Sequence record: MZ501070
Length of the DNA: 44,295 nt
Source: Escherichia phage GeorgBuechner
Strand: one strand, 5' to 3'
Shown: positions 5,004-44,165 of the stretch, one piece after another
Layout of the letters: every line of letters begins with the position of its first letter
Numbering within the stretch: position 1 is the stretch's first letter
Notes under the pieces: model-generated
Database searches by the model: none
Seen by the model: the letters and a program-made list of their open reading frames with translations, nothing else
What the model was told of the DNA's origin: nothing
Program-made: the position numbers and the translations under genes

Positions 5004-5768
5004 TTAGCGCGGAATACCGCAAATCTCGTTTAGTGTTTTCACGTCCAGCGCCACCGCCGTGGACTTCGGCTTGTCCGGGTAAGGAATGAACTGTTCCACT
5101 TCAGGCCACGCCTTGATCAGCTTCTTATCGGTATTGTGCATATCCAGCACGCCGGTAACAGTTAGTTTGAACGCGTCATACTTAGCACGCAACTCACGGC
5201 GGGCCTTGTCGTTACGGTCCAGGCGCTTACAGAAATCATGGTCCGCCGGGTAGTCTATACGACCGCGTGGTATATAGATCGGCAGCGCTTTCCCGTCGTC
5301 GTCGACTTCGCACACTGACGCTAACAAAATTTCCTCATACCCTGGCACAATATCGCCGAGATCGGGAGACAGTTTATTCATGTATTTATACTCCCAGTAT
5401 CCGCGATGTACTCGGAATCGGTGTCCGTCTCCGCTCAATGACACGGTACGGACGTTTCCACCTGCGTTGATTTCGAAAGTGGCGTCGTAAACGCTGCCTA
5501 TACCATATGGGTTGTCGGCGTCATGTCTATACGTCGCCTTATTGGTGTACACACAGACGCCGTACATCTTCGACGGGTCATCGCCGATTTCTTCAATGCG
5601 CTCACGTAGCTCGGCGAACGTATGAATGCCTTCCGGCATACAGTCCAGCGTAATGGCGTACGCCAGATTTCGAGAGTCCATCATGATTGATTTGGCTTCG
5701 GTCGCGATTTCGTGGTCGCGCAGGATGTTAGCCAGAATCTGGTTTTTAATGTCTTTTGTCAGTCTCAT
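5004..5768 (-). CDS. Hypothetical protein encoded in reverse orientation inside the head gene cluster (moron-like accessory gene)
   Basis: 254 aa from ATG at 5766-5768 (MRLTKDIKNQ...) with SD ACGAGGA; the longer track ORF 5004..6215 is a low-complexity N-terminal extension overlapping the scaffold gene and is rejected; no recognisable motifs. Confidence 0.6.
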   Translation of the reverse strand: MRLTKDIKNQILANILRDHEIATEAKSIMMDSRNLAYAITLDCMPEGIHTFAELRERIEEIGDDPSKMYGVCVYTNKATYRHDADNPYGIGSVYDATFEINAGGNVRTVSLSGDGHRFRVHRGYWEYKYMNKLSPDLGDIVPGYEEILLASVCEVDDDGKALPIYIPRGRIDYPADHDFCKRLDRNDKARRELRAKYDAFKLTVTGVLDMHNTDKKLIKAWPEVEQFIPYPDKPKSTAVALDVKTLNEICGIPR

Positions 5769-25316: not shown

Positions 25317-25782
25317 GGAGTTCTCCTTCGCTCATTATTTCAATTTGTGCGCTGCCGGTTGGCGGCGCTTCGTCAAATATTATCAATTGCTGGCATTTGT
25401 TATTGCTCGGCCCGACTTCACCGGTGACAGCATGTATAAATCGTATCCGCCAGTCCAGAAGAATTATCAGGTTTGCAGTCTTCCGGGCCAGCCTCGCCCA
25501 CTTAGTCGACGTGTCCTGATTCAGCAGCATGACCGTCCGGCGTCCGTGCGCTGCGCACTCGACCCACGGCAGCGGATCTGAATACGGCGGATTGCACCAC
25601 TTCCACCCTTTCAACTCTGCCCAGTCCACATCAAGCGCGCTGTGCTCCGCCGTGAAGTAACGCGGTAGCAGATGATTGGCGTCGCTCGCCGCCATATCGT
25701 AACGGAATCGGAACTTACGGCGCAGCGGTTTAAATAAAGCTGGCGGTGTGCGCCAGCTATCTTTCTGCTCACTCTTCTGCAT
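25297..25782 (-). CDS. dam: DNA N6-adenine methyltransferase (phage Dam type)
   Basis: 161 aa; DSWRTPPALF near N-terminus and catalytic WCNPPYSD (NPPY) motif. Confidence 0.8.
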   Translation of the reverse strand: MQKSEQKDSWRTPPALFKPLRRKFRFRYDMAASDANHLLPRYFTAEHSALDVDWAELKGWKWCNPPYSDPLPWVECAAHGRRTVMLLNQDTSTKWARLARKTANLIILLDWRIRFIHAVTGEVGPSNNKCQQLIIFDEAPPTGSAQIEIMSEGELLEYLNR

Positions 25783-26233
25783 AGTCTGGGTCTATCGCAT
25801 ACAGGGCAATCTTATCGCCTTTCGTCAAGATGCGCTGCACGCGCTTTGACTCCTCGGCGCTCATAGGGCGAGCGTTCGGGTATAGGCTGCCGTTTGTGGG
25901 ATTGCGCCACGCCACAAGCACCAGGTCTTTACGGTCGATCTTAGACTGGCGGCCCTTCGCGCGCACGTATTCCTCGGCCCGTTTGCAATGCTCGCGCAGA
26001 CCTTCGGCAGTGATGCGGTTTAGCGCGACGGTGGTGGTGTATCCGGTGCGCTGCATAATACCCATCAACTCATACAGCAGATCGAAGCGCTCCTCTAATT
26101 CCTTGCGCGCCTTCTCCTCGCCTTCATAGCTCGCCAGATAGGTGTCTGCCAGCGCGCTAACACGTTCGGCATGTTCGCGGGCTTCGAGGCATTGCGCGGC
26201 CCAGTAATTTTTCTCTTCTTGTAAAATTTTCAT
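25769..26233 (-). CDS. Hypothetical protein
   Basis: 154 aa, charged/helical; SD GGAG; overlaps Dam start. Confidence 0.5.
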   Translation of the reverse strand: MKILQEEKNYWAAQCLEAREHAERVSALADTYLASYEGEEKARKELEERFDLLYELMGIMQRTGYTTTVALNRITAEGLREHCKRAEEYVRAKGRQSKIDRKDLVLVAWRNPTNGSLYPNARPMSAEESKRVQRILTKGDKIALYAIDPDYAEE

Positions 26234-26881: not shown

Positions 26882-27588
26882 TTTAAATTTTCCTCGTTAA
26901 CCGCTATCGCGAAGCCGCGCGGAGTGAGCGACCGGATTAATTTTGTGCGGGCTGATTTGCCTCCGAGGCGACTATACTGCTTCGAGTACCCTTTTTCAAC
27001 GAAAACAGGTCTCTTCTCGGGCATACGGAAGCCGTTGCCGGTCCATAAGCAGGTCAGCTTCGGATATGAGTCGCGGGCGTTGATGTATTCAGGGAACAAC
27101 GGATGTACGTCATCCTCCGGCAGATATCCCCCATACTCCCACGGGTCGAACGAGTGATCCGGCTTTCGCCACTGGGTGGAAAGCACACTGCGCGGATTCT
27201 CAATCATATATGGCACTTCGAAGAAGTCACCCAGGTAAGCGGCGATCTTCGCGGTGCGCACCGCCTTAAGCTGAAAGGCTGGGTCTTTTGCACGCTTGCG
27301 TGGGAAAGCTGGCGCACCGCTAACCGCCAGATCCGTACACGGCGGGAACGCATAAATGATATCCGGCGTACCGAAATCGCCATTCATCGCGCGGTCCACG
27401 AAGTCCAGGTCGATAAACACATTACGATAGCGAATGCCGCGACCATAGATCCGGTAGTCCAGATAAGACCCGTGATCGGCTTCGGAGTAGTTGAAGCAGT
27501 AGCACGTATGCCCCATCTCGGCGGCACGCTCAATCATCAAGCCGCTGCCGTCAAACAATGACCAGATTGTCATTTTAGCAATAGTCAT
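26878..27588 (-). CDS. Short C5-cytosine DNA methyltransferase-like protein
   Basis: 236 aa; motif I-like LFDGSG, motif IV-like FPPCTDLAVSG (catalytic PC), motif VI-like MIENP; no obvious large target-recognition domain. Confidence 0.55.
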   Translation of the reverse strand: MTIAKMTIWSLFDGSGLMIERAAEMGHTCYCFNYSEADHGSYLDYRIYGRGIRYRNVFIDLDFVDRAMNGDFGTPDIIYAFPPCTDLAVSGAPAFPRKRAKDPAFQLKAVRTAKIAAYLGDFFEVPYMIENPRSVLSTQWRKPDHSFDPWEYGGYLPEDDVHPLFPEYINARDSYPKLTCLWTGNGFRMPEKRPVFVEKGYSKQYSRLGGKSARTKLIRSLTPRGFAIAVNEENLK

Positions 27589-29009
27589 TTGCGCGCCTTT
27601 TTAGCTTTCATGTATTCCATTAAATCGTCCTGAATGTCCCGCTTACTGTCGCGACGCTCCGCGACCAGTTCGTCCAGTGTGCCGCGCGCCTGGATAATGT
27701 AGACGAATACGGGACGAGGGTGTCCGGCTTGCATCTGGCGAACTGGCCCGATACGCTCCACGATCTGCGCGAAATGCTCATAGTTCCAGGTGTCTGAGAA
27801 GATAGCAAGGTGGTGTCCGCCGTCCTGCAAGTTAAGGCCGTGACCTGCCGATGCCGGGTGCGCAAACATGATGGGGATCTCGCCCCTGTTCCACGCTTCC
27901 ATATCCTTATTTCCTTGCTTTCCCTTACCCATCGCGACGCCGTGCGGGAATTTCTTCTTAAGACGTGCCAGGTCATGCTTGTACTGGTACGCGACGAGCA
28001 ACGGTGCGCCGTTCAACTCCTCTACGATACTTTCCAGCGCGTCCAGTTTAGCGTCGTGAATTTTCACCCATTCGTCGGTGCGCTCGCCGTCTTCGTCGAC
28101 TTTATACACGGCCCCGGAAGCAAGCTGAAGGCACTTAATAGTCTTCGAAGCAGCGTTCGCCGCCTCCACCGTCCCGCTTTCCAGTTCGGCAAATAGCTCC
28201 GCTTCGAACTGGTCATAAATCTTGCGGGCTTTCTTCGGCAGGTCAACAACAACCGGCGTATAGATTGGCTTGTCACACCCGAAGTATTCAGCCGCATCAA
28301 CGGTTAGCGACACGTCGGACAGGCGTTGTTGTATTTCTTTCTCGGAGTTCTTAAGCGGGGCGTGCTGCATAGTGAAGCTGCCAGGCTTAACCGGCTTACT
28401 AATAAACCAGCGGTCTGTGAATGCCTTATAGCTACTGCCGAGGCGTTCGCCACCGTCTACGAACCACGTCTGACCCCATAAGTCTTTCAGCCCGTTTGGC
28501 GCCGGTGTGCCGGTCAGGTTAATCCAGCGCTTGACGTGCTTATGTGCGATTGCCGCCAGTGCGCGTGCGCGCTTACTACCCTGCTTGCTTCGGTAGCCTT
28601 TCAGCTTAGTCGATTCATCGGCAACAACGACCGTAAAGGGCCACGCATCGCCGTAATAGTCAACCAGCCACTCAACCACATCATAGTTAACACAAACCAC
28701 GTTAGCGTCGCTCTCAAGCGCCGCAATACGGTCCTTCTCCGACCCAGTGCCGTCTACGACCAGCAGGGATGAGAACCGCCATTTCTCCTGCTCCGGGGGC
28801 CATGTACCCGACGCAACACGCAGCGGGGCCAGCACCAGTACGCGGTCCTCATGGTGGGACAGGACGCCAGTCTGGAACATTTTATTCAGCGCCCACATTG
28901 TCGCGCCGGTTTTACCGGACCCCATTGTCGCCCAGATATTACATCGCTTATGCTTGAGGATGAACGAGGTTATCAACTTCTGATATTCGCGGCGTCGGAA
29001 TCTTGCCAT
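27585..29009 (-). CDS. DNA helicase (SNF2/DEAD-like superfamily 2)
   Basis: 474 aa from ATG 29007-29009 with SD AAGGAGG (track ORF extends to 29099 but overlaps the upstream gene); Walker A MGSGKTGA, DExx-like VVADEST. Confidence 0.8.
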   Translation of the reverse strand: MARFRRREYQKLITSFILKHKRCNIWATMGSGKTGATMWALNKMFQTGVLSHHEDRVLVLAPLRVASGTWPPEQEKWRFSSLLVVDGTGSEKDRIAALESDANVVCVNYDVVEWLVDYYGDAWPFTVVVADESTKLKGYRSKQGSKRARALAAIAHKHVKRWINLTGTPAPNGLKDLWGQTWFVDGGERLGSSYKAFTDRWFISKPVKPGSFTMQHAPLKNSEKEIQQRLSDVSLTVDAAEYFGCDKPIYTPVVVDLPKKARKIYDQFEAELFAELESGTVEAANAASKTIKCLQLASGAVYKVDEDGERTDEWVKIHDAKLDALESIVEELNGAPLLVAYQYKHDLARLKKKFPHGVAMGKGKQGNKDMEAWNRGEIPIMFAHPASAGHGLNLQDGGHHLAIFSDTWNYEHFAQIVERIGPVRQMQAGHPRPVFVYIIQARGTLDELVAERRDSKRDIQDDLMEYMKAKKARK

Positions 29010-29013
29010 CTCT

Positions 29014-29232
29014 TTATTCCTCCTTTTTCCAGACTTCAGTTTCACTATCCCAGTTCCTCTTTGTGGCGTCGTAGTTGGTGGCGTGTCCGATGTGGACACC
29101 GGTAGCCCGGAAGCTCTTGAACTTCTGCCAGCACACCGTCAACGGCAGCGGGTGGTTCATGCCCGCAATAAACCACACGCGATCGCCCTGTTTACATTCG
29201 CCCAGCTTGGTGAGTCGGTAATGTTCTTTCAT
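29014..29232 (-). CDS. Small hypothetical protein
   Basis: 72 aa from ATG 29230-29232 (MKEHYRLTKL...) with SD GGGAG; longer TTG-initiated track ORF rejected. Confidence 0.4.
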   Translation of the reverse strand: MKEHYRLTKLGECKQGDRVWFIAGMNHPLPLTVCWQKFKSFRATGVHIGHATNYDATKRNWDSETEVWKKEE

Positions 29233-29489: not shown

Positions 29490-29768
29490 CTACGCGACCA
29501 ATTCAGCAACCAATAAATCACAGTCGGCTATGTTGTCGATAACGCGAACGTCAGCACCGCGGCGGGCCATTCGCTCATGTTCACGTACCTGGTGCGGCTT
29601 TGGTTTTCCTCCGGGGCGCTTCACTTCTACGAATACCACTTTGCCGTTTATGATTATAATCAGGTCGGGCGCGCCTGAGCGCCCCTCCCATATCACCTTA
29701 CGGCAGAATCCGCCAACCGCTTTCACCAGCTTCATCAGGTGACTTTGTACCTTGCCTTCTGGTGTCAT
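29490..29768 (-). CDS. VRR-NUC domain nuclease
   Basis: 92 aa; GAPDLIIIINGKVVFVEVKRPGGKPKPHQ matches the D ... E-V-K core of VRR-NUC proteins; start overlaps polymerase stop. Confidence 0.65.
   Translation of the reverse strand: MTPEGKVQSHLMKLVKAVGGFCRKVIWEGRSGAPDLIIIINGKVVFVEVKRPGGKPKPHQVREHERMARRGADVRVIDNIADCDLLVAELVA
29495..29514. promoter_or_regulatory. GCGACCAAT / GCAACCAAT motif pair at the 3' end of the VRR-NUC gene
   Basis: GCGACCAATtcaGCAACCAAT overlapping the last codons of 29490..29768. Confidence 0.35.
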
Positions 29769-32059
29769 TATTTTCTATACCTGTACATGATGTCGCCTTC
29801 TGCGGCAAGTGGGAAGCCTTTCGCCCAAATAGGCAGGTCGCACATCAGTGCGCAAAGCTCCTCGGTCGTGTAGTCGTCGGTGTCCGGCACTTCTGTGATC
29901 AATTCGTCGTGTACTGACAGGACTATTTCATAGCCCGCAGCTTCAACGCCAGGCATGGACCACGCGAGGATATCGCGACACAGCGCCTGTACGATGTTTT
30001 CCGTCAGTTTGCCGCCGTAGGTATACTGGAAGCCCCACTGGCGCGTCGTCTGATTCTCGCCCTGGTATTTGATGCGGGTGCTGGTGCGCTTCTTGCCGGT
30101 GTCTTCGTCGATCTCGGTAGTGACAGACAGCGCGATGCCGGGGTAGCTCATGATGCGCCCCGACGGCAACTCAATTTTCAACCACCAACCGGCGGCGTTC
30201 GGGTCGTCGCGCTCCTCGTCGAAGGTTGGGTCGTGCTTCGCCTTCGTGCGCACAATCTTAAGCGCTTTCCTACCGTCCTGGCGAACGTTCGCGCCAGCCC
30301 AGTATGCTTTGCCCGGATTGCGGATTGCACACAACACCGCGTCCTCAAGCTCGGCCCAAAAGGCTACCGTCTTCGGGTGGGCCTCACGCCACATACGTTT
30401 GATCGCGTCGCAGGTCAGCCAAACGTTTTTAGGCAGTATGTATGTTGGGCGCTCGTCTTTCTTGCCAGGCTTCGGCGGGCGTTTCGCTTCGTTAATGCGG
30501 GCGTACTCATAGCCGCGTTTCGCCGCCGCCCAAATGTGATCCGGGAACGTGCCTTTCATGACGTCAGCCATAGTGTAAAGGTCGAGGCCCAGGTTTTTAG
30601 CGAACTGCAAGAACGCCGCGACGCCGCCACCATAGCCCAGCCCCAATTCGCACGCCTTACCGATCTGGCGTAAGTCCTTGCGGTTAGCTTTAATGTAGTC
30701 CGGGTCCAGGCCGAACATTTTACCGGCAGTCTCGCAATAGATATCGCGACCGGCCTTAAACACCATGAGCGCGGTTTTCTCGCCCGCGATCCAGGCAAGT
30801 CCACGCCCTTCCACGTTGGAGTAGTCCGCTACGACAAACTTCTTGCCCTTAGCCGGGATAATGCACCCGCGAACGGTCGCGGCTGTTAGCTTAGATATGT
30901 CATACGCCCAGTGCGCGGTTCCGCGTAACAGGGCGTTGATGCCGTTGGTGAGCATGTGCGACCGGACCCAAAAAGAAACGTCGCTCTCGCCTTCTCGGCG
31001 CTTAATCTTCCCTTCGTGATCGTCGCTATACTCGCCGCGTGCCAGGTTTTGAGGCTGAAAACCTTTACCGGCCCAACGCAGTGTACGCTTTGCCCCACCA
31101 TACTGAATGCAACCACGGCGGCGTCCATCGGCAGACAGGCCGTTGACGAGCGGATTGTACTTAGTCGATGCCGTTGATGACGCACCGAGACGCATCTCAA
31201 TCAGCGCTTTGCCCTCGTCGGGGAAGTCCGGATCTTCCAGTAGGTCGTTTAGCGTGGATTTCTGCGCGTTGTGGATCGTGAACGCCGGGGCGATATCACG
31301 CAGGATTGGCAGGAAGTCATTTCCTGTCAGTTTACCGCCAAATCGCTCCCAGGCTTCTTCCTTCAATTCTTCCTTATGCGCCTGCACCGCTTTGATCGCG
31401 GCGTTCGCCAGGTCAACGTCCACATAGAAGCCGCGGTCGTTGATCAACTGGTCGATAAGCAGGATTTCATCTTCCTTCGGAGTATTACCCCAGTCCGGTA
31501 TGCGCCAGTAGACTTCACGCATTGCGATAATATCCAGCGCGGCATAGCGCAAAAATTTGGCCCATTCTTCAGGGTGAGTCTCGCGGGTGTAGCGGCGGAT
31601 TTTGTAGGTCTTCGGGGTAGGCTTGCAGAATCGTTTAATCAGCGCCTTGCCTGCCTTATCCTTCGCGTGCTCTGCGTCAACGCCCAGCACCTGGCACTGC
31701 ATATCGAGGCTACCCGGAAGCGCGTGGCGAAAGGCCATAATCATTGTGTCTTCGATCTGGCTTACCGGCAGGTCAATACCCCACTTCTCGCGGATAACCA
31801 GGCGGTCAAACAGGAGGCCGTTAGCCATCACTATTTTAGCCTTCTTGCGGCATACCTGGCGGAGCGCCTTGCGCAGTTCACGCGGCATTGTTGGGGATTC
31901 AGTGGCGTCCCATGTCTGCACGCGGCCCTCGTCGATGGCGTATGTGCAAATCATAATCTCGGTGGTTGGGTGCTCTGCGTAGGCGTACGCCCCTACTTTC
32001 TTCAGGTCCACCCCGCTAAATGTCTCGGTATCGAGAAACAGGCGTTCGAAGTCTTTCAT
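29768..32059 (-). CDS. DNA polymerase, family A, with N-terminal 3'-5' exonuclease domain
   Basis: 763 aa; exo motif LFLDTETFS; Pol A motifs VVADYSNVEGR, RQIGKACELGLGYGGG and LSVHDELITEV. Confidence 0.9.
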   Translation of the reverse strand: MKDFERLFLDTETFSGVDLKKVGAYAYAEHPTTEIMICTYAIDEGRVQTWDATESPTMPRELRKALRQVCRKKAKIVMANGLLFDRLVIREKWGIDLPVSQIEDTMIMAFRHALPGSLDMQCQVLGVDAEHAKDKAGKALIKRFCKPTPKTYKIRRYTRETHPEEWAKFLRYAALDIIAMREVYWRIPDWGNTPKEDEILLIDQLINDRGFYVDVDLANAAIKAVQAHKEELKEEAWERFGGKLTGNDFLPILRDIAPAFTIHNAQKSTLNDLLEDPDFPDEGKALIEMRLGASSTASTKYNPLVNGLSADGRRRGCIQYGGAKRTLRWAGKGFQPQNLARGEYSDDHEGKIKRREGESDVSFWVRSHMLTNGINALLRGTAHWAYDISKLTAATVRGCIIPAKGKKFVVADYSNVEGRGLAWIAGEKTALMVFKAGRDIYCETAGKMFGLDPDYIKANRKDLRQIGKACELGLGYGGGVAAFLQFAKNLGLDLYTMADVMKGTFPDHIWAAAKRGYEYARINEAKRPPKPGKKDERPTYILPKNVWLTCDAIKRMWREAHPKTVAFWAELEDAVLCAIRNPGKAYWAGANVRQDGRKALKIVRTKAKHDPTFDEERDDPNAAGWWLKIELPSGRIMSYPGIALSVTTEIDEDTGKKRTSTRIKYQGENQTTRQWGFQYTYGGKLTENIVQALCRDILAWSMPGVEAAGYEIVLSVHDELITEVPDTDDYTTEELCALMCDLPIWAKGFPLAAEGDIMYRYRK

Positions 32060-32284: not shown

Positions 32285-33019
32285 TTAACGGCGGCGACGT
32301 TTACGTGGTGCTTCGTCTTCGTCGTCGTCCTCATCTTCATCATCGCGTGGTTTACGACGTTTGCGAGGTTTTTCATCTTCCTCATCGTCGTCATCATCGC
32401 GGCGCTTGGACTTTTTGGACTTGCGCGGTTTGTCGTCTTCGTCTTCGTCATCGTTGTCCAGGTCTTCGTCGGAACATGAAGACCCGCCACCTCCGAAGGC
32501 TTCGCCGTCTTCACGGAATCGCAGACCCAGCAAACCCGCCCCGAGTCCCTTGCCGTTGGTATTGTTCCACGCCCAAATATCAAGGGACACGTTGCAATAA
32601 CAACCGGAGTAGATCTCCTGGCCTTCAATCTCGTCGCCGTCGATGGTCAGACCCTGTTCAGTCTGCTTCTCGCCTAGTGACGTTTGAATGATTGGCTGTT
32701 TGAACGATTTGGCGTTGATATACAACATGCCTTCGAATTCTTCGGTTACTTCATCGCGCTCGTCGCCATCGCGAACCGCACATTCCTTAGAATCCTGGGC
32801 GTAGTGGCGGTCCATCCACTTATCGGCATTCTTCTCGGATTTCAGCTTGTCGGTGAGCACTGCGCGCGCTGCCGCTTCCACTTTGTCCACCTGCGGATCT
32901 TCTTTATCGAGAAGAATCACGGCACGGTATGCCGGTTTTTGTCCATCCTGTTTAGGGGTATCACGTTCCCAGATTTTCAGGAAGCATACGCGCACATTTT
33001 TCAGGTTGACTTTAGCCAT
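32285..33019 (-). CDS. ssDNA-binding protein-like (gp2.5 / DUF2815-like) with repetitive charged C-terminal tail
   Basis: 244 aa from ATG 33017-33019 (MAKVNLKNVRVCF...) with SD GAGGAA; C-terminal ~60 aa are three acidic-block/basic-block repeats ending RKRRRR. Confidence 0.5.
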   Translation of the reverse strand: MAKVNLKNVRVCFLKIWERDTPKQDGQKPAYRAVILLDKEDPQVDKVEAAARAVLTDKLKSEKNADKWMDRHYAQDSKECAVRDGDERDEVTEEFEGMLYINAKSFKQPIIQTSLGEKQTEQGLTIDGDEIEGQEIYSGCYCNVSLDIWAWNNTNGKGLGAGLLGLRFREDGEAFGGGGSSCSDEDLDNDDEDEDDKPRKSKKSKRRDDDDDEEDEKPRKRRKPRDDEDEDDDEDEAPRKRRRR

Positions 33020-33076
33020 TTTCCAATTCCTCATTTTCACATGTATCGGGGTTATTGGAAGCCACCCCGTTCGGCT

Positions 33077-33109: not shown

Positions 33110-33352
33110 TCAAGCATTTTCGTTAAAAAGATTTCTGGTCACGTAGTTGGTCGCGTTCTCGATCCAGCTTAACGGCGGGCGGTCGATGTTCTTCTCCACC
33201 CATTCTACGGCAGCGTCGCTATAACCGTCGTCCAGCCATTTGGTTGGATGGCGAATCATCCAGGCCACCATTAAGACGCCTTGCACGCAATGCAGGATAA
33301 AGCCCAGCGCGCCGATCAAAAACATCAATAAGATTGCGAATACTTTATTCAT
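33110..33352 (-). CDS. Small membrane protein
   Basis: 80 aa; N-terminal TM segments AILLMFLIGALGFILHCVQGVLMVAWMI; SD ACGAGGA. Confidence 0.45.
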   Translation of the reverse strand: MNKVFAILLMFLIGALGFILHCVQGVLMVAWMIRHPTKWLDDGYSDAAVEWVEKNIDRPPLSWIENATNYVTRNLFNENA

Positions 33353-34778
33353 CGCTTAAGTCCTCGTCAGTAGCTTCATACCACGCAGGGCGCGGGTCGT
33401 CGATTGGTGCTAATACCGGTTTAGCCGGTGCGCGAGTGATTTTATCACACAGCTTCGCCCACACTTTCGGTTTCTCATCCTTCAATACCTTCTCGGCATC
33501 CGTAGGACTGAGCAATGTTTCTTTGTACATCACGTCGCGCTTGATTCGGGCCTTCGTGAAGATCTCAATCACTTCGCTCTCGTCCGCCCACTTGCGGATT
33601 CCTTCCTTACCGGCAACCATCTTGAGGCCCAGCGATTCGCCATCACCCGCCATTACGGCCTTGAATACCGCGGACTCGATAGCCTTGATGTGCTGGCGCA
33701 TTGCGTCAAGACCTTCATATGCCTTGCGCAGTTCCGCGGCGGTCATAGCGCCTGGGGCCGCTTCTTTCTCGCCACGCTTCGCACGTCGTGCTGCTTTGCG
33801 AGCTTCGCGGGCCATATTGCGGTCGTGATTGGCGCATTCTTCCTCTGTAGCAATACTCACGTCGTCGCCCAGGTCTTCGTCTGTTGCCGTTGGTGGGGTC
33901 ATCGTGTCGATTGCGGCCTTAGCGCGGGCGCTACACTGATCCGCAAATCGGCACCACTGGCACGCATCAACGCTGGGCCGAAAGTCGGCACGGGTTAGTC
34001 CCTTTTTGCCGCGGGCGTACGCTTCCAGGGCGGCGACAGCACGCTTGGACGCAAACTTAGCGAATATCTCCAGGGCTTCTACCGAAATATCCCACTCCGA
34101 CGCCCCGCCGCAATACGGCTGGAAGATAACCAGGCGCACGGTCGTAATGTCGTACATGGTTTGCAGCTTGCGCAGCAGGCCGAGCGCGTACAACATAATC
34201 TGTTTGTTTTCTTTCGCCTCGACCTTATGTCGTCCCGTCTTCAGGTCGCCAACAATCAGCATGTACGTGCCGTCGGTCTTCTTCATGACCATAGCCATAT
34301 CGGCAGTACCGAACGTCTTAACCCGGTTGCCGTCGATCTCGAAGCCAGAGTGTAGGACGCGGGTAAGATCGACGCGCATCTCAAGCTGAACAAACTCCGC
34401 CACTTCGAGGAGCGGTCGCCAGTGGTCGATGTATGCGTCGCACTGTTTCACCATGTCGTCGTTGACCAGCACGCCGCCTTTCGGCGCTTTCGGGTGCGCC
34501 TTTACCGGTCCCTTACCTTCGTTCTCGACGTAGCACCCTTTGTACGTCTTCGCGGTTATCAGCTTCTCCCCGGCAATGATGCGGTTGAGCACGACTTCAG
34601 ATACGGTGTGCATACTCGTACCGTTAATCGCCGCTTGCCCGGATTCGTTCGGGATATCTTTTTCCACCACCAGGGCGGCAGGGCAACCCATCCATTTTTT
34701 AGCACCGGACGGCCCGAGTAATGAATGTTCAGTATTACTACCGGATTGTGTTTTGCGCTTCGGTTTAATCGCCATCAT
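33345..34778 (-). CDS. Cas4/RecB-like PD-(D/E)xK exonuclease (DUF2800-like) with cysteine cluster
   Basis: 477 aa; DxK-type segment IVGDLKTGRHK; C-terminal cysteines in CGG...CQWCRFADQC suggest an Fe-S cluster as in Cas4-family nucleases. Confidence 0.6.
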   Translation of the reverse strand: MMAIKPKRKTQSGSNTEHSLLGPSGAKKWMGCPAALVVEKDIPNESGQAAINGTSMHTVSEVVLNRIIAGEKLITAKTYKGCYVENEGKGPVKAHPKAPKGGVLVNDDMVKQCDAYIDHWRPLLEVAEFVQLEMRVDLTRVLHSGFEIDGNRVKTFGTADMAMVMKKTDGTYMLIVGDLKTGRHKVEAKENKQIMLYALGLLRKLQTMYDITTVRLVIFQPYCGGASEWDISVEALEIFAKFASKRAVAALEAYARGKKGLTRADFRPSVDACQWCRFADQCSARAKAAIDTMTPPTATDEDLGDDVSIATEEECANHDRNMAREARKAARRAKRGEKEAAPGAMTAAELRKAYEGLDAMRQHIKAIESAVFKAVMAGDGESLGLKMVAGKEGIRKWADESEVIEIFTKARIKRDVMYKETLLSPTDAEKVLKDEKPKVWAKLCDKITRAPAKPVLAPIDDPRPAWYEATDEDLSDE

Positions 34779-35263: not shown

Positions 35264-35782
35264 TTAATCTTCCAGTTCGAAATAGGTTTCGACGATTTCT
35301 TTTAGCTCTGTGTGGAAGTCTTCGACGTCGTCATCTTCCAGCTTGGCGATTGATTTGATCTCGAACGATTCCAGCAGGTCGTCGAATTCGTCGTTCGCAT
35401 CGTCGTCATCACCACCGGCGATAATCGCGGCATACTGTTTGATTTCGTCGCGCATCTCCGCCAGCGGATCGGCATCTTTCTTACCTTTGCCTTTCGCCGG
35501 TGCTTTTTTGGCCTTAGCCGGTTTTTCGTCTTCGGCGTCTTCGTCGTCGTCATCTTCTACGACTTCTTTTTTGGCCTTACCCTTCGCCGGTGCTTTTTTA
35601 GCTTTAGCCGGTTTTTCGTCTTCGGCGTCATCGTCGCCATCTTCGACAACTTCTTTTTTGGCCTTAGACGGCTTCTTGTCTTCCTGCTTACCAACGGCAG
35701 CGCCAACGGTTTCATAATGCTTTGCAATGGTTTCCAGTGCTACTACGCCGCGAGTGATCAGGTTTACGATTTGCTCAAACAT
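35264..35782 (-). CDS. Acidic/lysine-rich repeat protein, first gene of the leftward early operon
   Basis: 172 aa from ATG 35780-35782 (MFEQIVNL...) with SD GGAG; two ~29 aa tandem repeats KKEVVEDxDDDAEDEKPAKAKKAPAKGK; the longer track ORF is rejected as a 5' leader. Confidence 0.55.
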   Translation of the reverse strand: MFEQIVNLITRGVVALETIAKHYETVGAAVGKQEDKKPSKAKKEVVEDGDDDAEDEKPAKAKKAPAKGKAKKEVVEDDDDEDAEDEKPAKAKKAPAKGKGKKDADPLAEMRDEIKQYAAIIAGGDDDDANDEFDDLLESFEIKSIAKLEDDDVEDFHTELKEIVETYFELED

Positions 35783-35978
35783 GGTATATCTCCGATTGGT
35801 TAAGTTTAGGTGTCGGCAGTTAACTTCGTCGGTGGCCTTAACATATTGCCAGGTTACGCGTTCTCCCGTTCGGGTAGTGGACCTGGTTATATAATCACGG
35901 TTGGGAATCCTGACACTTCGATCCGGCCCCTGCGTTGCCCCTCTCCAGTTTGCGTCCTGCATCCTGTCGACGGGGTGA

Positions 35979-36185: not shown

Positions 36186-36515
36186 ATGAATGTAAACGAC
36201 GCAATCGAAATGTTAACGAAGACTGTTTGCAGTGAGACAAGCCGGTCATGGGCATATACCGATGCCGTGGGGGCGGTGTTATTTGAAATCGAACGACTGC
36301 GGCTTACCGAAAAAGAATTGCGCGCGAAGCTGGAATTACTCAACGGTACGGCAGCCAGCAAGCTGCAAAAGCACAATGAAGAAATGGAAGAATACAAAAA
36401 ACAGGTTATCCGTTTGCGCGAGGAGGGAAAGTCATGGGCGATGATCGCTGAGCTAACCGGAATTAATCAGAGCACCGTGCGCTCATGGGTACGCAATAAT
36501 AAAACTTCTAAGTAA
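36186..36515 (+). CDS. Putative transcriptional regulator with C-terminal helix-turn-helix
   Basis: 109 aa; C-terminal KSWAMIAELTGINQSTVRSWVRN is HTH-like; central coiled-coil-like segment; first gene of rightward operon. Confidence 0.5.
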   Translation: MNVNDAIEMLTKTVCSETSRSWAYTDAVGAVLFEIERLRLTEKELRAKLELLNGTAASKLQKHNEEMEEYKKQVIRLREEGKSWAMIAELTGINQSTVRSWVRNNKTSK

Positions 36516-36525
36516 GGCAACGGCA

Positions 36526-38790
36526 ATGAGCTTAATTAAATTTGCGGTAACACGACCCGCTAAAAAAGGCGAAAAAGCCAGGGCGGAAAACTTCCAGATG
36601 ACAACCGATGAGTTTTTCGAATTTATCAATGATGCGAAAGAAATCTCCTCGGTGCATATCAACAAGACGGAAGATAAAGCCGAGTATGCGCGCCGCAAGC
36701 GTAAGGCCGATGGGATTGTGGCTTATACTCGTGACGGCTTACGTCGCAAGACCAGTGCGGTGGACCGCTCGATCCTGTTCTTCGATATAGACCGTACCGA
36801 CACCCGCACCTTACGCCGCTGCCGTAAGGCGTTCATCGACGCGGGGCTGGAACACGTATTTCACACCACTACCGGCGACCGCCACCCGCTGAAAGGCGGC
36901 ACGCGTTGCGCCCGTTTCCTGGTGCTCACCGATAGGCCTGTACCTGCTGAAGACCTGGGCCGCGTCCAGTATGCACTATTACACCAACTGGGCCTGTCAG
37001 ATGTGGACTTCGATGATTGTACGAAAGACACAAACCGCCTTATGTACCTGCCTCACCAGCAATCGGTTGTCAAGTGTCACTACGGCAAACGTGCCCGCGT
37101 CCGTCGTCTGCTTCGCCTGGCGGATAAGCTGGGAGTGGAAAAAGAGGAAGTACGACGCGAACTGACCCAGGGCGATGACGGCGTGGCGGACGGTATTCTG
37201 GATTGGTGCTTCCAGGCAGGATTCGAACCGCTGTCGTCCGGTCGTGGTTATGAAGTACCGTGCCCGAACGAACACCTGCACAGTGGTGAAGGGTCCACCG
37301 CAATCATGGTTAAGGATGGCGAGATCCGTTTCAAGTGTATGCACACCGGCAACGAGTGTTGCTCGGAACTGAACAGACACCAGCACCTGGCGCTACGTCT
37401 TATCGGGATCCCGGACCACCTGAACGTCGAACCGCACAACATGTCACGTAAGCAAATCGCCGCCATCCTCCCTGGACTGGACGACGAGGAAGTGGAATCG
37501 TGCTATGCGCATATCGTTGATGCGGTCGGAGACGGCGACGAGTACGGCGTATGTACCGACGCTGACCTGGATAACGAACCGGTCGCACTGTTCAGTAAGC
37601 ACGACCCGATCATAGAAGGCCTGGTCAACTTCAAATCGACCTGGTATATGGCTGGCGAATCGAACATCGGTAAATCGTTCTACGTGCTGGGGCAAATGGG
37701 TGCGGTTGCCGCGGGGATTCCGTTCGGCGGTGCGAAGGTCGTCCAGTCCCATTGCTTCTATTTCGACGCGGAAGGTGGCGAAGCCTCCAACCAGCGTAAG
37801 GAAGCATTGCAGATCAAATACGAGCACGACCTCGACAAGCTGCACATTATCGATCTGCAATCACGCGGCTGGGATATCACCAGCAAATCCGGCTTGCGTG
37901 AAGTTATCAGCTTCATCAACCGCACCGCTAACGGCGAACCGGTTGGCCTGGTGGCGTTCGACTCACTCAACCAGACGGTTGCGCTGCGGTCCGCCGATGC
38001 CAAACCGTTCGACGAGAACAACGCCAGCGATATGGGCGAAGTGGTCAAGGCGCTGAAGGCCATCGCGGAAAATACAGGCGGCAGTGCGGGCGTTATCCAC
38101 CACCCGGCGAAGGGTGCAAACGGCAGCAGATCTCCCCGTGGGTCCGGCGCGCTGCATGGCGCTGTCGATTCTGCGTTCTTCCTGGAGCAACCGGACGACA
38201 ATCAGCCGGGCCAATTGAACCTGTATCACGAAAAGGCACGTAACGGCATCAAGCAAGCGCCACGCGGATTCGTCCTGCTCAAGTGCAAGGTTAAGGTGGA
38301 TCTCCGCAAGTCCGAAGCGTTCGAGTCACACCAGTCCACCAGCACCGGGCCTGACTTCGGCGATGTGGTTGCCGGTTGGGACGTCAAGCCAATTGCATCC
38401 ACACCACGCGACGAGACTCTGTACCTCGTACCGGTCGCCCTGGCACCGTTCGCCATCGAACAGGCGAAGGCCGCGGGCAAAGCAGCAGTTAAGGAAGAGA
38501 ACGCAGCAGGACCGCGCAACGAAAAAGAGAAAGTGCTTTATGCGGCGCTGGAAAAACTGATGGAAGATAACCCGGACCATACCGGATTCAGCAAATCGGC
38601 AATTGTCCGCCAGGCTGGGCTTGCGAAAGGTGGCACATCGACGAAGGCAATTGACGATATGGTCGAGCGCGGAGTGCTAGGTTTTTATACCGATCCGCAC
38701 ACCGGGGCCATCTATGGGTCGTCGAATATCGTCATTAAAACGAATATACCAATCACGCTTTCTGCGACCGATGACGATTTAAAAGATTAA
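36526..38790 (+). CDS. DNA primase/helicase-like replication protein with P-loop ATPase domain
   Basis: 754 aa; Walker A GESNIGKS and Walker B-like VAFDSL in the central region; large N-terminal domain of primase type by position and size. Confidence 0.65.
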   Translation: MSLIKFAVTRPAKKGEKARAENFQMTTDEFFEFINDAKEISSVHINKTEDKAEYARRKRKADGIVAYTRDGLRRKTSAVDRSILFFDIDRTDTRTLRRCRKAFIDAGLEHVFHTTTGDRHPLKGGTRCARFLVLTDRPVPAEDLGRVQYALLHQLGLSDVDFDDCTKDTNRLMYLPHQQSVVKCHYGKRARVRRLLRLADKLGVEKEEVRRELTQGDDGVADGILDWCFQAGFEPLSSGRGYEVPCPNEHLHSGEGSTAIMVKDGEIRFKCMHTGNECCSELNRHQHLALRLIGIPDHLNVEPHNMSRKQIAAILPGLDDEEVESCYAHIVDAVGDGDEYGVCTDADLDNEPVALFSKHDPIIEGLVNFKSTWYMAGESNIGKSFYVLGQMGAVAAGIPFGGAKVVQSHCFYFDAEGGEASNQRKEALQIKYEHDLDKLHIIDLQSRGWDITSKSGLREVISFINRTANGEPVGLVAFDSLNQTVALRSADAKPFDENNASDMGEVVKALKAIAENTGGSAGVIHHPAKGANGSRSPRGSGALHGAVDSAFFLEQPDDNQPGQLNLYHEKARNGIKQAPRGFVLLKCKVKVDLRKSEAFESHQSTSTGPDFGDVVAGWDVKPIASTPRDETLYLVPVALAPFAIEQAKAAGKAAVKEENAAGPRNEKEKVLYAALEKLMEDNPDHTGFSKSAIVRQAGLAKGGTSTKAIDDMVERGVLGFYTDPHTGAIYGSSNIVIKTNIPITLSATDDDLKD

Positions 38791-43022: not shown

Positions 43023-44165
43023 ATGCACCCGCAAACTAAAATCACCGACGAGCAATTGATCGCTGAGCTGCAATCCGGCACTACCTCGAAAGATATTGCT
43101 AAGAAGTACGGTCTTTCCCTCCGAAATGTATACATGCGAAAAGCCCGCCTGTCGAAGAAAGGGATTGGTCACGGCAACGATGCCGTAATCCGTAAGCGCG
43201 TTGCCGATGGTTTTGGCGTTAAGCGTGTCTCAGCCCTGGTGCGCGGAAATGGCGAAGAGGTCATGTCGTGGGTTATCACTGAGCAGGACAAGGAGCGCCA
43301 GCTTGAAGCAATGCGCGCCGTTGTCGAGGGTATGAACAGCGAAATCACACCGGCAGCACCAGTAAGCGCCCCGCCAGTCCCGGTCCAGGCGCTCGACCTG
43401 CTCAACCTGTACACTGTGTCAGACTTCCACCTGGGCATGTTGGCCTGGGGCGAGGAGACTGGCGAAGACTGGGATATGGCGATTGCCGAAGACTTGTTCT
43501 ACCGCTGGTTTGTCGAAGCCTTCGCACGCGCACCGGACGCAGGCACTGCCGTTATCAATATCCTCGGAGATATGGCGCATTTTGATAGCCTCGATGCCGT
43601 CACTCCTGCCAGCGGTCACGTACTGGACGCAGACACCCGCTACCAGAAGCTGGTCCGCTACATGATTCGCATGGTGCGCAACGTGGTGGAACTGGCGCTG
43701 CAAAAGCACCACAAAGTCAAACTGCTAATCGTCCAGGGGAATCATGACGAGTCTGGCATGATTTGGCTGGCTGAAATGTTCAATACGCTGTATGAGAACG
43801 AGCCGCGCGTTGATGTGGACACGTCACCGGACGTATACAAAATGGTGCAGCACGGCAAGACCACGCTGTTCTTCCACCACGGGCACAAAGCGCGCTTCGA
43901 CGCTATTGAAACCGTCATGATTTCCAAATTCAGACAGGCTTTCGGGTCCAGCGAGTACAGCTACGCACACATAGGCCACTTGCACCACCAGAAGATTGTA
44001 GAATCCCGCAACATGATTGTTGAACAGCACAGGACGCTCGCAGCGAAAGACGCCTACGCCAGTCGTGGCGGTTGGATGTCCGGTCGCAGCGCCAACGTCA
44101 TTACCTACAGCGCCAACTACGGCGAAGTAGCGCGCTTAACCATTAGCCCGGAAATGTTGAAGTAA
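43023..44165 (+). CDS. HTH domain fused to calcineurin-like metallophosphoesterase
   Basis: 380 aa; N-terminal HTH-like TSKDIAKKYGLSLRNVYMRKARL; phosphoesterase motifs SDFHLG, GDMAHF, GNHDE, HHGH. Confidence 0.6.
   Translation: MHPQTKITDEQLIAELQSGTTSKDIAKKYGLSLRNVYMRKARLSKKGIGHGNDAVIRKRVADGFGVKRVSALVRGNGEEVMSWVITEQDKERQLEAMRAVVEGMNSEITPAAPVSAPPVPVQALDLLNLYTVSDFHLGMLAWGEETGEDWDMAIAEDLFYRWFVEAFARAPDAGTAVINILGDMAHFDSLDAVTPASGHVLDADTRYQKLVRYMIRMVRNVVELALQKHHKVKLLIVQGNHDESGMIWLAEMFNTLYENEPRVDVDTSPDVYKMVQHGKTTLFFHHGHKARFDAIETVMISKFRQAFGSSEYSYAHIGHLHHQKIVESRNMIVEQHRTLAAKDAYASRGGWMSGRSANVITYSANYGEVARLTISPEMLK

Follow-up and report, generated by a model that had tools for sequence, protein, structure and literature searches.

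The putative DUF2800 nuclease of an Escherichia Dhillonvirus and its replication-module context

Gene content of the locus

The window analysed here, the whole 44,295-nucleotide record MZ501070 of Escherichia phage GeorgBuechner, is a complete Dhillonvirus genome of 44 kb; the features discussed below are listed in Table 1. The ORF on which the initial annotation centred could be confirmed as it had been drawn. It opens with a tandem ATGATG preceded by the Shine-Dalgarno-like stretch AAGGGTGGA, and no promoter or terminator signal in the surroundings of the gene scored better than shuffled sequence.

Table 1. Positions of the nuclease gene, its domains and motifs, and neighbouring replication genes in the window (aa numbering from the first ATG; fractions are counts among 151 aligned representatives).
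Feature	Position	Strand	Remarks
DUF2800 nuclease gene	33345..34778	-	477 aa; stop codon 33345-33347; uninterrupted ORF
Nuclease domain, aa 17-295	33894..34730	-	RecB/AddB/AdnA/Cas4-like PD-(D/E)XK fold; AF2 pLDDT >90
N-terminal motif H18-x3-(S/G)PS-x4-W-x2-C32-P	34665..34727	-	C32 codon 34683-34685
H57 codon	34608..34610	-	core-helix histidine; 148/151; invariant in A1
E133 codon	34380..34382	-	acidic, first core strand; 0.99 conserved; invariant in A1
D160 codon, GTaD motif	34299..34301	-	predicted first catalytic Asp of the D...DxK triad; 150/151
D178-L-K180, (D/E)xK motif	34239..34247	-	predicted catalytic; D and K both 151/151
Q193-x3-Y197, RecB-family QhxxY motif	34188..34202	-	Q and Y each 151/151
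C223-G-G	34104..34112	-	column mostly L/I/V/A; residue not conserved
C273-x2-C276-x5-C282	33933..33962	-	three C-proximal predicted Fe-S ligands; each C in 151/151
Variable linker, aa 296-345	33744..33893	-	acidic stretch, then basic helix
Conserved C-terminal domain, aa 346-466	33381..33743	-	120 aa; without solved structural relative
Acidic C-terminal tail YEATDEDLSDE	33348..33380	-	negative net charge in 99% of the family
gp2.5/Enc34-type ssDNA-binding and annealing protein (DUF2815)	32285..33040	-	Pfam PF10991 E=6.8e-32; PHROG 112
Family-A DNA polymerase	29768..32059	-	Pfam DNA_pol_A E=3.2e-16; PHROG 17 E=6.6e-130; same leftward gene string
VRR-NUC nuclease, resolvase-like	29490..29768	-	Pfam VRR_NUC E=2.8e-6; PHROG 93 / 5702; same module
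SNF2-type helicase	27585..29099	-	Pfam SNF2-rel_dom E=7.2e-11; PHROG 62 E=1.6e-157; same module

The encoded protein matches the Pfam family DUF2800 (PF10926), the membership that the initial annotation had suggested, over the full length of the model (E=1.8e-66, 225 bits against a cutoff of 21; aa 18-464 on model positions 1-368 of 368), and its C-terminal 131 aa alone still match positions 257-368 (E=1.8e-18). It also matches Pfam PDDEXK_1 (E=2.8e-7, 31 bits against a cutoff of 22) and PHROG 69, which is labelled 'exonuclease' (E=1.9e-105), while NCBIfam holds no model for it. An exhaustive homologue search returned 9,613 cluster representatives at E<=1e-3, a number that together with the DUF2800 E-value puts the match far above chance. 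At ~98% identity (467 of 476 aa), the closest characterized relative is Bas14_0045 (B14T) of Escherichia phage TheodorHerzl (Bas14), whose gene occupies the same genome position with the same neighbours; the two proteins differ by nine substitutions and, if the first ATG is used, by one N-terminal Met. Judged by sequence, the ORF is the Dhillonvirus DUF2800 nuclease and the orthologue of B14T, an ordinary member of its family, and the original finding is correct, yet mostly known already.

The SSB-like and polymerase genes that had been placed next to the nuclease gene indeed follow downstream on the same strand, except that an 80-aa ORF intervenes before the SSB gene. The DUF2800/DUF2815/PolA grouping is likewise real: a duf2800-gp2.5-polA module has been described (PMC8093625) and recurs in distant phages. 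In seven of seven genomes examined, namely the window and Chivirus, Streptococcus, Paenibacillus, Bacteroides, Aeromonas and Pasteurella phages, the DUF2815/Enc34 gene lies 0-4 genes downstream of DUF2800, an adjacency that spans phages of Proteobacteria, Firmicutes and Bacteroidetes.

With respect to conserved gene adjacency (7/7 genomes), the pair thus has the layout of a two-component system of nuclease and SSAP. In lambda Exo-Red beta, RecE-RecT, T7 gp6-gp2.5 and the SIRV2 Cas4-like gp19 with gp17/gp18, a gene for a PD-(D/E)XK or other nuclease adjoins an ssDNA-annealing gene just as it does here, where the neighbour encodes a gp2.5 homologue. We presume this DUF2815 product to be the functional partner of the nuclease, and its position beside the nuclease gene is what the presumption is built on. 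The enzymes themselves differ: lambda Exo and RecE are toroids without an Fe-S module and T7 gp6 is a FEN-fold enzyme. Elsewhere in the phage, at 43023-44165, there is a possible second nuclease, a point against the functional model proposed below.

A RecB-type nuclease core outside Cas4 proper

The AF2 model of the 477-aa protein (pLDDT 90.1, pTM 0.79) bears out the nuclease fold anticipated by the initial annotation. Foldseek returned relatives of this fold with E-values from 5e-7 to 2e-4, the top matches being ACE1 of the Cas4 family (9iac/9iab), AdnA (6ppu/7sjr), Cas4 SSO0001 (4ic1), Exo5 (7lwa), AddB (4ceh/3u4q), Dna2 (5eax) and RecE (3h4r); lambda Exo, like RecE, is among the fold matches. 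A phmmer search of PDB sequences with the single sequence found nothing, and the AdnA nuclease domain was reached only with the family profile (E=5e-4).

The proposed PD-(D/E)xK-type core is present as D160, D178-L-K180 and Q193xxxY197, so that the D...(D/E)xK and QhxxY motifs of RecB-like enzymes come together on an alpha-beta core. Conservation was counted over 151 aligned representatives that are pairwise at most 50% identical, and on this basis we predict H57, E133, D160, D178, K180 and Q193xxxY197 to be the catalytic residues, with H57 as a putative metal ligand resembling RecB H956. We regard the gene, its family, its motifs and its fold as established for the window protein.

Its former designation as Cas4/RecB-like holds for the fold and the cysteine pattern but not for Cas4 proper. 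Pfam Cas_Cas4 (PF01930) does not match at E<=0.01 with the full protein or at E<=10 with aa 1-300, which, together with its place in the PDDEXK_1 (AddB/AdnA-like) branch, makes the protein 'Cas4-like' and not Cas4; its branch is the pfam12705 group that PMC5704561 calls 'Cas4-like'. Cas4 SSO0001 (4IC1), type I-C Cas4 (8D3L) and ACE1 (9IAB/9IAC), small stand-alone nucleases, have the same fold and four-cysteine layout. The phage protein has ~200 extra residues (linker and C-terminal domain), and its gene lacks a CRISPR or Argonaute context. We consider it highly improbable, and the least likely of all readings, that the protein is a genuine Cas4 manipulating CRISPR adaptation, a role suggested for Cas4-like proteins of Campylobacter phages (PMC4283603). 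Besides this precedent, the four-cysteine PD-(D/E)XK architecture and a weak PADLOC Cas4 match (E=9.8e-4, with no single stretch passing alone) would agree with such a role. Yet Cas_Cas4 fails to match the nuclease domain even at E<=10, the closest sequence relatives are AdnA and PDDEXK_1, the gene context is replication and not CRISPR, and Cas4 is devoid of the extra C-terminal domain. For Cas4 in the narrow sense (PF01930/COG1468), neither a match to the Pfam model nor an association with cas1/cas2 or a CRISPR array was found, and the 44-kb genome contains no cas genes.

AdnA (6PPU/7SJR) and AddB (3U4Q/4CEH) have in common with the phage protein the RecB-type PD-(D/E)XK fold, an N-proximal Cys plus CX2CX5C, QhxxY and DxK. 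At 12-18% identity, the phage protein differs from them in standing alone without SF1 helicase/motor domains, and its C-terminal domain is unrelated to either. The eukaryotic enzymes Exo5, Dna2 and MGME1 belong to the same superfamily branch and all process ssDNA, flaps or ends; Exo5 and Dna2 carry Fe-S clusters, but the three are only 11-16% identical to the phage protein and have other accessory domains.

Four cysteines and a predicted Fe-S cluster

In Cas4-family nucleases and in AddAB/AdnAB, one N-proximal and three C-proximal cysteines bind an Fe-S cluster, the 'iron staple'. The phage protein displays this pattern, an N-proximal Cys (C32) and a conserved C-proximal CX2CX5C (C273, C276 and C282). 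C32 is part of a W-x-x-C-P motif and is Cys in 147/151 representatives, with gaps in the others; H18, S24, W29 and C32 are near-invariant, and the N-terminal motif as a whole aligns with AdnA 'lsPS...dCP'. The triad aligns with CanCpvrssC of AdnA and CryCpftsiC of ACE1, and in the profile-to-AdnA alignment all four residues land on AdnA's cysteines. The initial annotation had proposed a C-terminal cluster CGG...CQWCRFADQC. Both strings exist (aa 223-225 and 273-282) and the triad is invariant, but C223 is not conserved and the fourth cysteine is C32. The triad, moreover, does not lie at the C terminus; it closes the nuclease domain (aa ~17-295) and is followed by the linker, the 120-aa domain and the tail.

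In AdnA and AddB, the equivalent cysteines bind a 4Fe-4S cluster at the fork (PMC8789073, PMC12094033), where the Fe-S subdomain of AdnA is located (PMC8789073). By analogy, C32, C273, C276 and C282 are predicted to hold an Fe-S cluster, and homology suggests a corresponding cysteine geometry and active-site channel. It counts against this part of our model that the literature reports an Fe-S cluster for no DUF2800 protein; the preprint on B14T, for which the nuclease domain was purified, mentions neither cysteines nor a cluster (bioRxiv 10.64898/2026.07.14.737667).

A folded domain after the nuclease core

The linker is modelled with pLDDT <50 at 298-311 and ~70 for a helix at 321-337; its length varies across the family from 6 to 66 aa in a gap-rich alignment. 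Residues 346-466, by contrast, were treated in the preprint on B14T, like everything beyond the nuclease domain, as disordered, whereas we find them conserved, confidently folded in the AF2 model and mildly basic. The tails of family members carry a recurrent (D/E)(D/E)(F/L) motif. Since tblastn matches covered just aa 18-310 in several phages, some homologues seemed to lack the C-terminal domain; custom HMMs detected it in six of six distant proteins, four of them such partial matches, and the idea was dropped. A BFVD search returned other DUF2800/RecB-like phage nucleases, and its matches to small phage proteins (Sipho_Gp157, E=0.45; 'host-nuclease inhibitor', E=1.8) are too weak to be trusted. 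The domain and the acidic tail may hold the nuclease on DNA or a partner, or regulate it there. What the analysis adds to the literature is which cysteines matter and that the C terminus is folded, not disordered.

The orthologue B14T triggers a retron

Recent work has identified the DUF2800 nuclease as what sets off a retron defence system. B14T, a DUF2800 protein and active PD-(D/E)XK nuclease, cuts retron msDNA at the base of the stem and thereby triggers retron IX, according to a July 2026 preprint (bioRxiv 10.64898/2026.07.14.737667). The purified fragment B14T(18-295), to which aa 17-295 of the window protein correspond, cleaves msDNA at the stem-loop base in a buffer with Mg2+, and the D177A/K179A mutant is inactive (bioRxiv 10.64898/2026.07.14.737667). 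As these residues align with D178 and K180 here, with a numbering offset of one, we predict metal- and motif-dependent DNA cleavage for the window protein from its 98%-identical orthologue. The description of the grouping as poorly characterized is hence outdated in this respect, although it still applies to what the protein does during the phage's life cycle.

Two observations on B14T count against the functional model proposed below. Truncation escapers of Bas14 are viable, so that B14T is dispensable in the laboratory (bioRxiv 10.64898/2026.07.14.737667), and a gene dispensable for plaque formation cannot be the sole route to replication. In addition, the sole activity reported for B14T is endonucleolytic, on both strands at the stem base (bioRxiv 10.64898/2026.07.14.737667). 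Such stem-base cutting is not processive 5'-3' resection.

T7 gp3/gp6 and T5 A1 are phage nucleases that degrade host DNA, a precedent for a host-directed or anti-defence enzyme that would break down host DNA as a source of nucleotides or eliminate nucleic acids used in defence, retron msDNA among them. The cleavage of msDNA is in line with this idea, but it switches the defence on and does not neutralize it (bioRxiv 10.64898/2026.07.14.737667). ACE1 is an ssDNA endonuclease in which ssDNA is threaded through a channel too narrow for duplex, and by analogy a helicase-less nuclease with an ssDNA channel should spare intact chromosomes (PMC12094033). Furthermore, in the genomes examined the family sits beside SSB/annealase genes in replication modules across phyla. 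A host-directed or anti-defence function therefore appears very unlikely.

Proposed function in recombination-dependent replication

We propose, with a probability of roughly 0.6, that the protein is an Fe-S-type AddB/AdnA/Cas4-like nuclease that trims junctions and 5' strands and feeds the adjacent gp2.5-like annealase within a recombination-dependent replication module. In this model, aa 17-295 would form a Mg2+-dependent PD-(D/E)XK nuclease of AddB/AdnA/Cas4 type whose N- and C-terminal segments are stapled together by the Fe-S cluster. Most likely ssDNA, not duplex, would enter the narrow active-site channel, as in AdnA, AddB and ACE1, and cutting would take place at or near ss/ds junctions and on 5' strands; for the polarity we follow AdnA and AddB, in which the 5' strand is the one cut (PMC12094033). 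Trimming of phage DNA ends and branched intermediates would expose 3' ssDNA, which the gp2.5-like protein may coat and then anneal. Gene adjacency is the evidence that points to this cooperation. Nuclease and annealase together could support recombination-dependent replication, concatemer formation and break repair, with PolA, VRR-NUC and the SNF2 helicase acting alongside.

Alternatively, the protein might remove flaps and primers during replication, in the role of T7 gp6/T5 FEN, acting on 5' flaps and RNA-primed ends at ss/ds junctions in lagging-strand maturation. The phage PolA has no 5' nuclease domain, with matches of polymerase and 3'-5' exonuclease type only, the scanned ORFs include no gene of FEN/RNase H type, and the nuclease gene lies inside the replication gene string. 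The stem base cut by B14T is a junction-type site (bioRxiv 10.64898/2026.07.14.737667), and T5 FEN, too, triggers a retron by cutting msDNA (PMC12640716). On the other hand, the AddB/AdnA/Cas4/Exo5/Dna2 fold family is mainly one of end resection, though Dna2 processes flaps; the truncation mutants are viable (bioRxiv 10.64898/2026.07.14.737667), though host Pol I or RNase H could take over the task; the annealase is the most constant neighbour; and no polymerase is annotated in the Pasteurella phage locus (6 kb flanks). On balance, we judge a role in flap removal unlikely. The two roles are compatible with each other, as T7 gp6 illustrates.

We tentatively raise a further possibility, although we hold it to be rather doubtful. 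Residues 346-466 might represent a new fold limited so far to DUF2800 and related phage RecB-like nucleases, which with the acidic (D/E)(D/E)(F/L) tail would connect an Fe-S nuclease that has no helicase with the gp2.5-like annealase/SSB or the polymerase, the Fe-S subdomain serving as a strand-separating wedge. If so, the protein would be a self-contained junction-processing enzyme and stand for a distinct and very widespread class (>9,000 clusters) of phage recombination initiators, and the choice of msDNA as bait by several retrons would be explained by its activity on hairpin-like DNA. More generally, proof of the Fe-S cluster, of the substrate polarity and of what the overlooked C-terminal domain does would account for the use of the module to the phage and for the baiting of the nuclease by defence systems with structured ssDNA. 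In this context, the trigger of Retron-Eco7 in the Dhillonvirus 'phage98', for which the main text of PMC12640716 gives no gene name, might be the same gene.

A widespread nuclease encoded near an annealing protein

The 477-residue reading frame that the initial annotation placed at 33345-34778 is recovered, uninterrupted and at the same coordinates, in the ORF listing of the window. It starts with ATGATG, immediately preceded by AAGGGTGGA; since the public annotation of bas14_0045, the ortholog in Escherichia phage TheodorHerzl (BASEL Bas14), begins at the second ATG, residue numbers used here are larger by one. The two proteins are identical at 467 of 476 residues, and the window is collinear with the TheodorHerzl genome from the small terminase gene onward and therefore represents a complete genome of the same genus, Dhillonvirus. 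At the DNA level the gene matches 154 phage records (80-99% identity), nearly all of them Escherichia Dhillonvirus siphophages of 43-45 kb. The protein matches Pfam DUF2800 (PF10926) over the entire model (aa 18-464, E=1.8e-66), PDDEXK_1 (PF12705) above the curated cutoff (E=2.8e-7) and phrog_69 'exonuclease' (E=1.9e-105). DUF2800 has been recognised as a RecB-like PD-(D/E)XK group since 2012 (PMC3424549), and annotation of the gene as a member is routine. An exhaustive phmmer search of 1.84 billion cluster representatives returned 9,613 relatives at E<=1e-3, and by tblastn the protein is present in 1,348 of 50,697 phage records, from phages of Salmonella, Escherichia, Streptococcus, Bacteroides, Paenibacillus, Vibrio and others.

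A duf2800-gp2.5-polA module has been described previously (PMC8093625), and the corresponding grouping named at the outset is present in the window. All genomes examined carry a DUF2815/Enc34 gp2.5-family gene downstream of DUF2800, at a distance of 0-4 genes, usually with PolA, VRR-NUC, SNF2 helicase and primase genes nearby; no other feature of this context is as constant as the pairing of nuclease and annealase. The small ORF between the two genes overlaps the 3' end of the nuclease gene by 8 nt and is kept in Bas14 as bas14_0044. The gp2.5-like SSB has a long C-terminal tail, of ~55 residues, in which acidic and basic blocks alternate (DDEDEDDKPRKSKKSKRRDDDDDEEDEKPRKRRKPRDDEDEDDDEDEAPRKRRRR), unlike the purely acidic tail of T7 gp2.5.

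Nuclease gene, its neighbours and further features of the window
Feature	Coordinates	Strand	Assignment or position
DUF2800 nuclease, 477 aa	33345-34778	-	
80-aa hydrophobic, membrane-like ORF	33110-33352	-	PHROG 11211, unknown function; between nuclease and SSB genes
gp2.5/Enc34-type SSB	32285-33040	-	3' of 80-aa ORF, downstream of nuclease
C-terminal tail of SSB	32285-32450	-	
Family-A DNA polymerase	29768-32059	-	Pfam/PHROG search; downstream of SSB gene
VRR-NUC protein	29490-29768	-	Downstream of polymerase gene
SNF2-type helicase	27585-29099	-	Downstream of VRR-NUC gene
Primase-helicase	36526-38790	+	Divergent from nuclease gene string
109-aa helix-turn-helix protein	36186-36515	+	HTH_23, Sigma70_r4_2; PHROG 9366 'transposase'
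232-aa protein	35264-35962	-	PHROG 3127, unknown function
90-nt tandem duplication	35493-35666		In 232-aa protein gene; 2 copies, 90% identical
Terminator-like hairpin, strong	35255-35236	-	Just 3' of 232-aa protein gene
380-aa protein	43023-44165	+	PHROG 704 'DNA repair exonuclease', E=1e-160
173-aa protein	5004-5525	-	Pfam Nmad5 (nucleotide modification associated domain 5), E=7e-34
154-aa protein	25769-26233	-	PHROG 10530 'DNA ligase', E=1.5e-93

Catalytic residues and a revised cysteine set

Conservation was assessed in an alignment of the query with its 150 best representatives, by construction mutually <=50% identical. Residues H18, S24, W29, C32, G53, T54, H57, E133, G157, T158, D160, D178, K180, G182, N191, Q193, Y197, Q220, P221, P268, C273, C276 and C282 are invariant or nearly so. 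Judged from this alignment, the set contains the RecB-family catalytic residues (H, E, D, DxK, QhxxY), which bears out the PD-(D/E)xK core of the initial annotation.

Nine cysteines are present (32, 82, 113, 223, 273, 276, 282, 315 and 444), and both strings of the cysteine arrangement singled out earlier occur, CGG at aa 223-225 and CQWCRFADQC at aa 273-282. The CX2CX5C triad of the latter is conserved, together with one N-proximal cysteine. Position 223, however, is L, I, V or A in most family members, so that C223 cannot be a ligand of a family cluster; the four-cysteine set thus has to be corrected to C32 plus C273/C276/C282, the first change that our analysis makes. One N-proximal and three C-proximal cysteines define the Cas4-family and AddAB/AdnAB nuclease domains, where they hold the Fe-S 'iron staple' (PMC12094033; PMC5704561). 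An Fe-S cluster is thus predicted for the DUF2800 nuclease.

An AddB/AdnA-like fold

A full-length AlphaFold2 model from a 60-sequence alignment (mean pLDDT 90.1, pTM 0.79) was compared with the PDB by Foldseek. It matched the Argonaute-associated Cas4-family ACE1 nucleases (9iac/9iab, E 5e-7 to 7e-6), the AdnA nuclease domain (6ppu, 7sjr, 6ppr, E about 2-4e-6), Cas4 SSO0001 (4ic1, E 3e-5), MGME1, Exo5 (7lwa), AddB (4ceh_B, 3u4q_B), Dna2 (5eax), RecE (3h4r) and type I-C Cas4 (8d3l), as expected of the suspected nuclease fold. AdnA is also reached by sequence with the family profile (E=5e-4), the motifs SPS...W..CP, DLKtG...QLxxY and CX2CX5C superposing on AdnA's own residues in the profile alignment. 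AdnA has its Fe-S subdomain where unwound DNA forms a Y-junction (PMC8789073), and ACE1 cuts ssDNA endonucleolytically, its active site being set in a channel for which duplex DNA is too wide (PMC12094033).

Of the earlier Cas4/RecB-like label, the RecB/Cas4-type fold holds, whereas assignment to Cas4 proper does not. The Pfam Cas_Cas4 model gave no match to the nuclease even at E<=10 and a PADLOC Cas4 model matched only weakly (E=9.8e-4), which places the protein in the pfam12705 'Cas4-like' branch in the sense of PMC5704561. This AddB/AdnA-like placement is our second addition. Hijacking of CRISPR adaptation is an unlikely role for this nuclease.

A conserved C-terminal domain

Beyond its nuclease domain, the ortholog Bas14_0045 ('B14T') was described as 'disordered' (bioRxiv 10.64898/2026.07.14.737667). 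This description appears to fit only the linker (aa 296-345), which is gap-rich, varies from 6 to 66 residues in the family and is modelled with low confidence. Residues 346-466 are strongly conserved (>=90% for G378, K386, V388, G390, G393, R395, W397, P425, E429, D461 and R463), and their pLDDT is 87-98 in the full-length model and rises to 95.7 in a prediction of this segment by itself. Custom HMMs detected both domains in six of six distant homologs tested, which come from Chivirus and from phages of Streptococcus, Pasteurella, Paenibacillus, Bacteroides and Aeromonas; the family as a whole therefore shares the two-domain architecture. Confident BFVD matches to aa 346-466 are confined to other DUF2800/RecB-like phage nucleases. 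The domain has a slight positive net charge (family mean +4); after it comes a tail with a negative net charge in 99% of members, in which a (D/E)(D/E)(F/L) motif recurs. The tail is reminiscent of the acidic tails of SSB and T7 gp2.5, which bind partners. Our third addition is this conserved C-terminal domain, modelled as folded and lacking relatives among solved structures, together with the acidic tail.

Retron escape and proposed function

The 98%-identical ortholog B14T has already been characterised biochemically. In a preprint of 14 July 2026, Bas14 mutants escaping retron type IX (Sen3) all carried mutations in B14T, premature truncations among them (bioRxiv 10.64898/2026.07.14.737667); B14T is therefore dispensable for plaque formation. 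Co-expression of B14T with the retron was toxic, and D177A/K179A (D178/K180 here) abolished this toxicity. Nuclease activity and catalytic residues have been shown via the ortholog. The same authors remarked that its structure resembles those of AdnA and RecB; their text nowhere contains the terms iron, Fe-S or cysteine (bioRxiv 10.64898/2026.07.14.737667). In related Dhillonviruses, Retron-Eco8 is triggered by the neighbouring gp2.5-like SSB and Borvo by the polymerase (bioRxiv 10.1101/2022.08.27.505566). Retron-Eco7 escapers of Dhillonvirus phage98 map to a gene 'of unknown function' that the main text leaves unnamed (PMC12640716) and that could be the DUF2800 nuclease. Degradation of host DNA or an anti-defence function is unlikely.

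The best-supported reading is that the DUF2800 protein is a stand-alone AddB/AdnA-type nuclease with a predicted Fe-S cluster, which would act on ssDNA at ends and junctions and supply its product to the adjacent gp2.5-like annealing protein; polarity, partner coupling and the part played by the C-terminal domain are inferred. Nuclease and annealase would form a two-component module for recombination-dependent replication and break repair, with lambda Exo-Red beta, RecE-RecT, T7 gp6-gp2.5 and the SIRV2 Cas4-like operon as proposed analogues. The main rival, compatible with a recombination role, is flap or primer removal in lagging-strand maturation, as favoured by a phage PolA without a 5' nuclease domain match and by the failure to find a FEN/RNase H gene among the ORFs scanned. 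The observation that started this analysis is real and its interpretation essentially right.

Other genes in the window

The 380-aa protein is possibly a second, Mre11/SbcD-like nuclease; its Pfam matches were all to models of calcineurin-like metallophosphoesterases and fell below threshold (Metallophos_2 E=1.9e-4), and its Bas14 ortholog is annotated 'hypothetical protein'. The Nmad5 gene lies within the structural gene block on the opposite strand, and the label of its Bas14 ortholog, 'putative DNA polymerase III beta subunit', looks like a mis-annotation. The 154-aa protein gave no match in a Pfam search and is very small for a ligase. In the 232-aa protein, the duplication encodes charge-block repeats (KPAKAKKAPAKGK...EVVEDDDD). 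The helix-turn-helix gene is the first in the primase-helicase operon, which runs rightward and thus opposite to the leftward replication genes; its product is probably an early regulator, not a transposase.
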